Below are positions 1,583 to 3,821 of a DNA stretch of 64,000 nucleotides, piece by piece (the stretch's first letter is position 1; each line of letters starts with the position of its first letter). The notes beneath the pieces are model-generated. The model saw only the letters and a list, made by a program, of their open reading frames with translations, searched no databases and was not told the origin of the DNA. Source of the stretch: an uncultured Chloroflexia bacterium (GTDB taxonomy: Bacteria; Chloroflexota; Limnocylindria; Limnocylindrales; CSP1-4); NCBI GenBank assembly GCA_963720495.1, contig CAVRFU010000013.1:32273-96272 (forward strand), written 5' to 3'. Made by a program: the position numbers and the translations under genes.

Positions 1583-1600
1583 TGGTCGGGGCGAGAGGAT
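1583..1600 (-). repeat. 18-bp direct repeat of the tRNA-Pro(CGG) 3' end (att-like site)
   Basis: tggtcggggcgagaggat at 1583-1600 is identical to 3745-3762, the last 18 nt of the tRNA including CCA, in the same orientation. Confidence 0.85.
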
Positions 1601-1810
1601 CTGGGCCCGCGGAACCTACCGAACCCTGCCGATCGCCGGGGCGATCCGGCGGACTCTGCCTGAGTCGGATCGGGAATCTGCGGGCGGGCTTGACCCGGAC
1701 GCGAAACATGTCGGGGACGGTCGCACGGACAGCCCGCGACTAGATCGAACGATCGAGCCGCGCAATCCCTCTGGAGGAGTAGACGCGCCCACGTCGAGCG
1801 CGCACGATCG

Positions 1811-2374
1811 GTGATCAGGGTGGATCACGACCTCGTCCAGCTAGCCCAGCGCGGTGACCAGGACGCCTTCGCCGTCCTGGTCCGGACGCATGGGGACCGC
1901 CTGTTCGGGATCGCGCGAAGGATCCTCCGCGACATCGATCTCGCCGACGACGCCGTCCAACGGGCGCTCGTCGTCGCCTGGCGGGAACTGCCGAGCCTGC
2001 GCGAGGTCGACCGGTTCGAGTCCTGGTCGACGCGGATCCTGGTCCGCATCTGTTTCGAGCTCTCGCGCGCGACGCGCCGGGACGCCGTCCATCTGGTGCC
2101 ACTCGATGTCGCCATCGAACCGATGACCGCCGACGCCGCTGAGGCTGTGGCTCGGCGCGACCTTCTCGAACGTGGATTCCGGCGACTCGGACCGGAACAG
2201 CGCGCGATCCTCGTCCTGCACCACTACGTCGGACTCGAACCGTCCGAGATCGCCGAAACGCTCGGCATCCCGGCGGGGACGGTCCGTTCCCGACTGCACT
2301 ACGCCCATCGCGAGATGCGCGCCGCCCTTGAGGCCGACTCACGCCTCTTGGTGGCTGGAGGACGACTGGCATGA
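1811..2374 (+). CDS. ECF-family RNA polymerase sigma-70 factor
   Basis: Region 2 (AQRGDQDAFAVLV...ADDAVQRALVVAWRELPSLREVDRFESW) and region 4 (QRAILVLHHYVGLEPSEIAETLGIPAGTVRSRLHYA). Confidence 0.93.
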   Translation: MIRVDHDLVQLAQRGDQDAFAVLVRTHGDRLFGIARRILRDIDLADDAVQRALVVAWRELPSLREVDRFESWSTRILVRICFELSRATRRDAVHLVPLDVAIEPMTADAAEAVARRDLLERGFRRLGPEQRAILVLHHYVGLEPSEIAETLGIPAGTVRSRLHYAHREMRAALEADSRLLVAGGRLA

Positions 2375-3633
2375 CCGACCCCATCGACATCGAACCCATT
2401 CTCGACGACTGGCTCGGCGTTGGGTCCGACATCCTGCCCGATCGTTCGGTCGATGCCGTCCTCCGTACCGTCCGACAGACGACACAGCGGGATGCCTGGC
2501 GCGCTCCGGGGAGGACCACTTATATGCACAACATTCCGCGACTCGCCGTGGCCGGAGCGACGCTCGTAGCCGTCCTTGCCGTCGGCGGGCTCCTTCTCCG
2601 CGGCAGCCCGTCAGCCACCGGCGGGGCCGGCAATGGGCCCGTGCAATCAGCGCCGCCAACACCTTCAGGCACGCCTGCCCCGTCCGCGGCATCGGCCGCG
2701 CCGGCGTACGAGACGCCGCTTGGCATCGCCCTCGTCGGCATCGACGGGACCCTGAGACAGGACCTCGGTCTGCCATCGGATGCGTGGAGTCCGGACCTGA
2801 GCGCCGAGGGCGACCGCGTCTTCCTTCTGACGCGTTCGAAGGACGTGGTGCACTGCTTCGGGTGCGCCAACCCGGGCGCTTGGCCTGCGGTCGTCCCGGT
2901 CGGCAAGACATCCGGCCTCTACATCTGCTGCGACACCGACGGATTCGGCCAGGCTGCCTGGTCACCGGATGGCAGTCAGCTGGCGTACCAACACACGGGC
3001 AAGGACGGCAACGTCGACGTGTACGTGGTCCCCGTCGTCGATGACGGTTCCGGGATTGTCCGCTCAGCAACGCCAGGCGCCTGACAACCGATCCCGCCGT
3101 CGATGGCTGGCCGGCGTGGTCGCCGGACGGCGACGACCATCTACTACACGAACGACGGTGGCACGGGCGCGGACTCCGATGGGTTCTCCGAGACGCAGGA
3201 GATCTGGCGCGTGCCCGCGACCGGCGGGACCCCGCAGCGACTGACGGACAACGCCGAGGCGGACCTCCAGCCGGACGTGGCCGCGGACGGGACCGTCGTC
3301 TACTGGGAGGGTGGCGAGATCCGGACGATGGCCGCCGACGGGACCGGGCAGCACCGGCTCGCGGCGATCCCGTCGGATTTCGGGTTCAACCCGCGCTGGT
3401 CACCCGATGGTTCGAAGATCGCGGTCCTCCAGTACGACGCGAGCAAACGAGCCCTGTTCGACCCGGCCATCCGCCAGGACGCCGACCTGGCGCTCCTTCG
3501 GGTCGTCGTCGTGGATGTCGCGACCGGCGACGCCACGACCGTCGGTCCGCGGGTCGCTTCGTTCCTCAATCCGGTCTCCTGGACACCGGACGGAACGGCC
3601 CTGCTGATCAACCGGTACGACGACGGACCCTAG
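2371..3633 (+). CDS. Membrane-anchored anti-sigma-like protein with PD40/TolB-like propeller; two apparent frameshifts near 3070 and 3135
   Basis: ATGA overlap with the ECF stop, TM helix (LAVAGATLVAVLAVGGLLL), AWSPDG motifs. A third frame bridges ORFs 2371-3084 and 3103-3633 (RRLTTDPAVDGWPAWSPDG), restoring one continuous propeller. Confidence 0.75.
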
Positions 3634-3722
3634 GATCAGCCGGACCTGTGCGGGCGCGAACGTTGTCGGAAGGACTGCGTGGGACGGCCTGACGGCCGAC
3701 GACGTCGATCGACGATGAGGCG

Positions 3723-3740
3723 GACCTCACGCATGAGGTC
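3723..3740. terminator. Short hairpin between convergent units, just 3' of tRNA-Pro(CGG)
   Basis: gacctca-cgca-tgaggtc, 7-bp stem. Confidence 0.35.
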
Positions 3741-3744
3741 GGTA

Positions 3745-3821
3745 TGGTCGGGGCGAGAGGATTTGAACCTCCGACCTCATCGTCCCGAACGATGCGCGCT
3801 ACCAAGCTGCGCCACGCCCCG
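3745..3821 (-). tRNA. tRNA-Pro(CGG)
   Basis: Reverse complement cggggcgtggcgcagcttggtagcgcgcatcgttcgggacgatgaggtcggaggttcaaatcctctcgccccgacca: cloverleaf, anticodon loop ttCGGga, GGTTCAAATCC T-arm, encoded CCA. Confidence 0.97.

Follow-up and report, generated by a model that had tools for sequence, protein, structure and literature searches.

The stretch of DNA studied here (the window: 64,000 nucleotides, C13:32273-96272) comes from an uncultured Chloroflexia bacterium of the Limnocylindrales (CSP1-4), whose assembly, G000 in the following, comprises 3.3 Mb on 14 contigs at an estimated completeness of 76%. Close to the left end of the window the 3' end of tRNA-Pro(CGG) is repeated downstream of the gene, and repeat and gene enclose an islet, E4, which holds an extracytoplasmic function (ECF) sigma gene and its partner. 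Our best reading of E4 is that of a recombinase-less unit, eroded or passenger, of an array built by large serine recombinases (LSRs), similar in kind to the staphylococcal cassette chromosome (SCC) or to cis-mobilizable elements (CIMEs). The general model behind this reading, in which LSRs integrated elements one after another behind a single tRNA and the recombinase genes were lost afterwards, has in our estimate a probability of roughly 0.78. E4 itself is not autonomously mobile here, as there is no LSR gene within the unit.

Islet E4 and the array behind tRNA-Pro(CGG)

The plus-strand sequence TGGTCGGGGCGAGAGGAT is present exactly at window positions 1583-1600 and 3745-3762, and the latter copy comprises the 3' strand of the T-stem, the 3' strand of the acceptor and the ACCA of tRNA-Pro(CGG). 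With up to three mismatches allowed, these are still the only two sites in the window, where 0.23 are expected and none of 100 shuffles reaches two; the ungapped similarity between both copies extends over 28 nt (89%). Since the tRNA is encoded on the minus strand, the copy at 1583-1600 is found beyond its 3' end and points the same way, just as an integration scar would be arranged. Block O, in the following, denotes the final 16-17 nt of the tRNA, as shared by its partial copies. Genome-wide, the 16-mer TGGTCGGGGCGAGAGG occurs five times, always on C13 and in one orientation, and the four partial copies (c1 to c4, Table 1) are all downstream of the tRNA. Elsewhere in the 3.3 Mb of G000 no site has two or fewer mismatches to the 17-mer, no degenerate copy of O at that threshold is found left of C13:13297, and an Rfam search of window positions 1-5000 returned the tRNA only. 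Two sites against 0.23 expected, together with the lack of dispersed copies, place the repeat far beyond chance. The exact, equally oriented 18-mer on which the original prediction was built is thus confirmed, and it is not common away from tRNAs, which that prediction had named as the finding that would speak against it. Islets at tRNA 3' ends are characterised by such a direct repeat of the tRNA's 3' part, equally oriented and downstream of the gene, and E4 has one.

The copies of O divide 22.7 kb into four units, E1 to E4. The cassette at 1-1395 is a separate unit, E3, bounded by its own repeat c3, which is located 927 nt left of the window, and the proposed serial accretion of ECF cassettes at this tRNA holds true in this respect. 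Because the sigma factors of E3 and E4 are only 35.5% identical and both units have nothing but O in common at the DNA level, E3 is not a recent duplicate of E4. A search for further copies or an integrase left of the window, as had been suggested, yielded c1 to c3 on C13, together with LSR scraps and with no tyrosine integrase. All three LSR scraps of G000 are at the tRNA-proximal ends of units, and the one in E3 reads on into the repeat as GRGER, with the strand and the placement next to the repeat that intact LSR genes have. The scrap left of c1 points to one more unit, E0, beyond that copy, so that the array consists of at least four units and probably of five. At the outer edge of E0, a DHFR-like (RibD_C) protein is encoded (C13:9518-10140), and the orthologues of this gene in the relatives G011 and G017 lie inside the array, beside a class A arm (see below), which suggests that G000 no longer has the outer att end of E0. 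The DHFR-like gene has 89.5-94% DNA identity to these two copies, and an ArsR-SRPBCC pair (C13:12261-13221) has 88% to that of G024; with the core flank at 70-75%, this indicates that cargo of the hotspot moved between species recently. The G000 assembly holds no serine recombinase gene, only scraps, and these are in units other than E4.

The 2144 bp between the two window copies of the repeat (1601-3744) hold the ECF sigma gene and its partner only, as originally described, and no recombinase, LSR or LSR scrap was found there; within the 111 nt from the stop codon of the partner to the tRNA, LSRs are matched only by the residues that O encodes. Sigma factor 2 consists of regions 2 and 4 only, as ECF sigmas do. 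The start codon of its partner overlaps the stop codon of the sigma gene (ATGA, read directly from the sequence), and this gene overlap, the single membrane helix and the PD40 repeats describe the partner, for which a Pfam search gave no anti-sigma domain match. The partner reads as two open reading frames (ORFs), with a middle piece that carries a canonical PD40 motif in the third frame (3045-3140, ..RRLTTDPAVDGWPAWSPDG), which amounts to two apparent frameshifts between ~3060 and 3135. These are probably assembly indels, because conserved genes nearby are split likewise and the relatives are long-read soil metagenome-assembled genomes (MAGs). Frameshifts split several genes at window positions 3916-4661, 5669-7061 and 3045-3140, among them that of a conserved MtrB-like histidine kinase, and a lipoprotein gene nearby is split as well. 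Relatives with few contigs also have low completeness estimates; long-read MAGs in which indel errors remain typically look like this.

As cargo, the pair of an ECF sigma and its presumed anti-sigma is an ordinary signalling pair and unremarkable, from a sigma family with a massive expansion in this genus (matches with E < 1e-40 in 121 of the 131 genomes, often many each). The nearest homologue of sigma 2 in another species, in G044, is 74% identical. We considered whether this is a close orthologue that would demonstrate transfer, and rejected it: the match is part of an ordinary cluster of four ECF pairs with no O nearby. Pairs of an ECF sigma and a PD40 anti-sigma often occur in tandem clusters of four or more (L081, G044:C2:441-453 kb).

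Table 1. Features of the array in G000 and of related loci. Positions without a prefix are window coordinates; a prefix gives the contig or locus.
Feature	Position	Strand	Remarks
ECF sigma factor 1, 3' end (E3)	1..123	+	gene start at C13:31840, outside the window
Partner of sigma 1 (E3)	121..1395	+	single-pass membrane protein, PD40 beta-propeller (PD40 E = 9e-16)
LSR C-terminal scrap (..SAEAERYDWSEAFGSEPLVYSISRS)	1508..1582	+	tRNA-proximal end of E3; 53% identity over 30 aa to LSR C-termini of relatives
c4, partial copy of block O (3' end of tRNA-Pro(CGG))	1583..1600	.	E3/E4 boundary
E4 element-side half-site, class A arm GATCTGGGCCCGCGGAACCTACC	1598..1620	.	
ECF sigma factor 2 (E4 cargo)	1811..2374	+	Sigma70_r2, r4_2 and Sigma70_ECF matches
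Presumed anti-sigma/sensor 2 (E4 cargo)	2371..3633	+	cytoplasmic N-terminal part, one predicted membrane helix, Pro/Ala linker, PD40 repeats
E4 tRNA-side half-site, beta type	3704..3744	.	no recombinase scrap
tRNA-Pro(CGG), intact	3745..3821	-	final 16-17 nt are block O; Rfam 63.3 bits; 100% identical in several genus members
Copies of O	C13: c1 13297; c2 24276; c3 31346; c4 33855; tRNA 36017		c4 is the window copy
LSR scrap left of c1, TAHGRPAGWEAAFGA	C13:13218-13262	towards O	73% identity over 15 aa
LSR scrap left of c3, LSR residues 210-263	C13:31165-31327	towards O	62-70% identity
Unit E1			11 kb; TetR, CPBP proteases, two-component pair, ABC exporter
Unit E2			7 kb; DUF5946, enolase-family enzyme, GntR, sugar ABC system; GC 64.6% vs genome 71%
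Unit E3			2.5 kb; ECF pair 1
Unit E4			2.16 kb; ECF pair 2; innermost, tRNA-adjacent unit
LSR tail, evidence loci	L050:3001-4482 and 627-730; L045:9937-10137		
tRNA-Arg(CCT) and copy	C1:61765/65133		outside the window
tRNA-Cys(GCA) and copy	C4:227048/242235		outside the window
tRNA-Arg(CCG) and copy	C9:98482/103449		outside the window

Large serine recombinases and the half-sites at block O

Which type of recombinase uses this site? The original prediction took the tRNA 3' repeat for the att site of a tyrosine integrase. Its interpretation as an attachment-site scar stands, and the tyrosine type does not: a six-frame PF00589 search of 20 genomes found no tyrosine recombinase on any contig that holds an array, the only PF00589 matches in G000 are two Xer-like loci on C1, and LSRs are linked to the repeat instead. 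A search with PF00239 located LSR genes in G005 and G059 that lie ~1 kb away from the tRNA, and others within the array of G068, and by tblastn, LSR genes or C-terminal scraps of them abut O or the tRNA in G001, G005, G006, G015, G059, G060, G068 and G133. LSR matches occur in 62 of the 131 genus genomes, many of them spanning only residues ~390-490, and thus terminal scraps. A scan of the whole collection gave 34 LSR loci, in 22 of which the contig includes the gene's 3' end; after that end, O comes next at a distance of 0-46 nt and on the same strand in 21 of these 22, the sole exception being a 3'-truncated gene, and seven of the 21 adjoin an intact tRNA. The LSR itself is a protein of 493-508 aa with a Resolvase domain (E = 2e-11) and a weak zinc-ribbon match, and complete LSR elements of only 2-4 kb exist.

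The LSR reading frame runs through O. Beside the tRNA it ends in ..EGRS-GRGERI, with the stop codon in the T-loop sequence of the tRNA, and the last codons and the stop are read from the antisense strand of the tRNA. Beside another type of arm, class B, the frame continues for 27 conserved residues (..DSPATTDLPITMRLAEPPEPFDWLRSA) before its stop (evidence loci in Table 1). Since the ORF continues into the class B arm, the long conserved part of that arm is an alternative C-terminal tail, and the C-terminal end of the LSR would, judging by these reading frames, depend on the integration state. Just inside class B arms, a small HTH protein of the LuxR/GerE type is encoded (L045:10119-10400; L050:700-960), in the case of L050 together with an LSR in an element of 3.8 kb; this protein is a candidate regulator or directionality factor.

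On the side of O where the tRNA body would be, sequence families recur across genomes with unrelated cargo. The class A arm, ..GGAyyyGryCCsryGGAACCTACCTCATCG, is found at c1, c2 and c4 of G000 and in 19 of 121 genus genomes, compared to none for a reversed-pattern control, and it is also paired with LSR-scrap ends in G133 and G015. The class B arm, GGGATAGCCCCGCGACCACCGACCTTCCGATCACGATGCG...., has a diverged member at c3, and a class C and further classes also exist. All of these classes look like degenerate 3' halves of a tRNA, as expected for att arms that are carried by an element. The outer flanks of O fall into recurrent types as well; one of these, beta, reads TCGGAGC-n4-6-GCTCGACGATGAGGTAGGTy up to O and is a 14-nt inverted repeat of the class A arm. 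Both ends of E4 match conserved half-sites of the LSR type. Its class A arm is truncated after position 23: past AACCTACC it no longer follows the consensus, which goes on with TCATCG. At the tRNA side, gcatgaggtcggta (3731-3744) abuts the tRNA, a second, partial beta-like copy, gtcgatcgacgatgaggcggac, is located at 3704-3725, 18-19 nt away, and GACCT occupies half-site positions 20-24, as it does in other arms. The GGAAC of the class A arm was also inspected by eye as an ECF-type promoter, and no fitting -10 element was seen in this check.

For a comparison of these half-sites, 77 distinct junctions were numbered from a presumed centre at the end of the first 15 nt of O. In 30 of the 55 arms and 26 of the 77 outer flanks, an ACCT motif starts with position 21; in the tRNA body it starts with position 15. 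In serine integrases, Rutherford et al. described a 9-bp motif for the zinc-ribbon domain that is shifted by 5 bp between attB and attP (PMC3783163). A motif that is 5-6 bp nearer to the centre in the chromosomal site would fit an LSR model, with the centre itself being an estimate.

Among the relatives, all Limnocylindrales/CSP1-4 with one genome per species, tRNA-Pro(CGG) is present in 39 of 41 genomes. Its upstream flank, with LpqB-like, MtrB-like and MtrA-like genes, is syntenic at ~70-78% DNA identity, and the DNA downstream is different in every genome compared. There, the relatives carry arrays of one to seven partial copies of O: one each in G001 and G011, two each in G008 and G017, two in G060, at least three in G015, three each in G133 and G059, and seven in G068. 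A 2.4 kb islet between the tRNA and O in G001 holds an ECF pair only, which is 40% identical to the pair of G000 and in opposite orientation, and ECF pairs are also found in the arrays of G011, G060 and G133. The proposed comparison of this locus across relatives thus confirmed that its downstream content differs, and did not provide a strictly empty site among the relatives compared. The same cassette in fixed synteny, which had been named as evidence to the contrary, is not seen, and the relatives carry different cargo. G006 was considered as an empty site or native flank and was rejected, as the flank it shares with c1 of G000 is a C-terminal coding scrap of an LSR (..WDAAFGAGVVRVKEGQS). 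Several contigs break exactly in the tRNA or in O (G023:C71:1-76, G007:C1:1-64, the ends of G010:C10 and of L072), which is consistent with repeats or population heterogeneity at the site.

Weighing the readings of E4

In the model that we favour, tRNA-Pro(CGG) would be the chromosomal attachment site for a family of integrative elements that encode an LSR at their very edge, reading into the 3' end of the tRNA. Upon integration, the element's own copy of O would restore the tRNA, and the displaced O would remain at the far end. Repeated integration at the same tRNA and subsequent loss of LSR genes would then produce an array, which for G000 would be ordered as (LSR scrap)-O-E1-O-E2(LSR scrap)-O-E3(ECF pair 1, LSR scrap)-O-E4(ECF pair 2)-tRNA. 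The association of LSR genes with O suggests that the LSR is the catalyst of these insertions. Provided that new elements enter at the tRNA, E4 would be the youngest unit, and probably the last to have arrived.

So how did E4 come to lack a recombinase? Loss of its LSR gene by deletion seems preferable to arrival as a passenger. Both of its arms are damaged and three sister units contain LSR scraps, which favours erosion as a general process; moreover, a 1 kb unit in G011 resembles a deletion derivative of an 8.5 kb unit in G017. Like CIMEs and remnants without ccr genes, E4 has kept attL and attR, has no integration genes and is a member of a tandem array. At the least, it is a fixed-looking remnant with ordinary regulatory cargo.

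Several points weigh against this interpretation. E4 contains no LSR scrap, so that its connection to LSRs is one of arm similarity alone, and its cassette was found in no other sampled genome. Canonical serine integrases are not known to accept attL as a target, and stacking behind an occupied tRNA therefore needs an explanation, for which different LSR lineages, a tolerance as in SCC, or composite transfers are possible. The genome first taken for an empty site, G006, turned out to have an LSR scrap next to the tRNA. The shift of the half-site motif as measured is 6 bp, compared to 5 bp in the Listeria integrase model, and it is counted from a crossover position that is itself only deduced. 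Finally, given the 76% completeness of G000, an LSR could be located in DNA that was not assembled.

It is also conceivable, though in our opinion unlikely, that E4 would belong to a family of recombinase-less class A/beta cassettes, which co-resident LSRs would move in trans in an SCC- or integron-like manner. Beta ends show the same boundary of ~31 nt (a hairpin and CGATGAGGTAGGTT) in at least nine junctions with unrelated cargo, namely the DHFR-like gene, MFS and TetR genes, a mixed set of 8.5 kb and ECF pairs, with no recombinase or LSR scrap among them. The junctions of beta, O and class A look like a perfect dyad attP, class C arms form a second such pairing with an inverted repeat of their own, the cargo shared between species is more alike than the core flank, and the minimal LSR elements could serve as helpers. 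However, G000 has no LSR that could act in trans, and the truncated class A arm of E4 and the 18-19 nt duplication at its beta end have the appearance of decay. Furthermore, beta resembles the last ~10 codons of a G005-type LSR (ALLDDEVGL vs AFGPDDVEM) and may be a shared deletion scar, and the unit of G011 that looks like a deletion derivative is likewise difficult to reconcile with cassettes moved as such. A broader and tentative proposal, which we hold to be doubtful, is that of a cassette-chromosome system of the Limnocylindrales at tRNA-Pro(CGG), in which LSR helpers of 2-4 kb would shuffle recombinase-less units with symmetric half-sites (A/beta and class C) in trans. If that were true, the LSR would end one residue after GRGER at the tRNA, and with its 27 conserved residues when excised or beside a class B arm, and this integration-dependent tail could be a built-in directionality switch.

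A tyrosine-integrase island, with the 18-nt repeat as the identity block of the crossover and the integrase lost or acting in trans, is very improbable. Duplications of 16-18 nt of a tRNA 3' end are typical for tyrosine integrases (PMC10654092, PMC5704250), and such integrases do occur at a tRNA-Pro ~20 kb away in two relatives, but no array contig of the 20 genomes examined has a PF00589 match, the Xer-like loci of G000 are on another contig, and in most arrays it is LSR genes or scraps that abut the repeat. The nearby site is tRNA-Pro(TGG), the second tRNA-Pro of the window (24130-24206), beside which tyrosine integrase genes are found in G133 (L037, G133:C2:382259-383336) and G060 (L039, G060:C4); it may be a separate hotspot of the tyrosine type. 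It is hardly credible that the repeat arose when an ECF cassette was duplicated in tandem along with the 3' end of the tRNA, or through gene conversion, instead of being a recombination-site scar: two similar cassettes do lie side by side with repeat spacings of ~2.16-2.2 kb, but tandem duplication is rejected by the low identity of the sigmas and the lack of DNA similarity beyond O, the arms at the two copies are of different conserved classes, one of them with an LSR scrap, and these arms recur beside different cargo in further genomes.

Relation to known systems

The proposed array of serially integrated, LSR-encoding elements that would have lost their recombinases has counterparts elsewhere. 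As in SCCmec and the enterococcal cassette chromosome (ECC), LSRs here would insert cassettes of variable cargo at the 3' end of a conserved gene, the end of which is restored, and direct repeats with dyad-symmetric att sites border the units; remnants of these cassettes that lack ccr and carry attL and attR are known as well (PMC6222049). The target here, however, is a tRNA gene rather than rlmH and the host belongs to the Chloroflexota, and instead of an internal ccrAB pair there is a single LSR gene at the edge of the element, the ORF of which runs through the att site; the likeness would be a functional one. CIMEs resemble E4 in that integration genes have been lost, attL and attR have been kept, and units stand in tandem at the 3' end of a target gene, and arrays of CIMEs, integrative and conjugative elements (ICEs) and integrative and mobilizable elements (IMEs) arise by integration, decay and renewed integration (PMC5704250). 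In contrast, the described cases use tyrosine integrases and conjugative partners, whereas here the enzyme is of the serine type and no conjugation or relaxase genes were seen.

The tycheposons of Prochlorococcus are likewise islands adjacent to tRNAs, with successive integrations and partial tRNAs between units, and fragmented integrases and extra partial tRNAs are left there as remnants; a minority carry an LSR (bioRxiv 10.1101/2020.12.28.424599). Tycheposons, however, mostly have tyrosine recombinases and often replication modules, whereas at the present site every recognisable recombinase is an LSR, and an element can be complete at only 2-4 kb. Phage-type serine integrases (Listeria A118/LI, Bxb1, phiC31) share with the LSRs described here the Resolvase domain, the weak zinc-ribbon match, dyad-like att sites and a distal motif that is 5-6 bp nearer to the centre in the chromosomal site (PMC3783163). 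Serine integrases usually target protein-coding genes and have a common core of 2 bp, and tRNA 3' ends are typical of tyrosine enzymes (PMC10654092, PMC5704250). Unlike these phage-type enzymes, the present family has the 3' end of a tRNA as its target, with a shared block of 16-17 nt that also encodes the last residues of the enzyme. What is found here is a variant: an LSR family with a tRNA target, a shared block encoding the end of the enzyme, and a host in the Chloroflexota.

For each of tRNA-Arg(CCT), tRNA-Cys(GCA) and tRNA-Arg(CCG) of G000, the 3' end is repeated once, over 16 nt and without mismatch, at a distance of 3-15 kb downstream and in the same orientation (Table 1). Near these three pairs there is no tyrosine or serine recombinase match, and they look like further recombinase-less islets.

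For this abundant, uncultured soil lineage, our findings mean that one tRNA would be the target of a serine recombinase family, with the recombinase gene physically fused to its site, and that the flexible genome, sensory ECF modules included, is shaped by arrays with as many as seven scars. Should the recombinase-less units indeed prove to be mobilised in trans, a very different phylum would possess a cassette system akin to SCC. Moreover, a compact LSR with a defined tRNA site would be a candidate genetic tool for these organisms.

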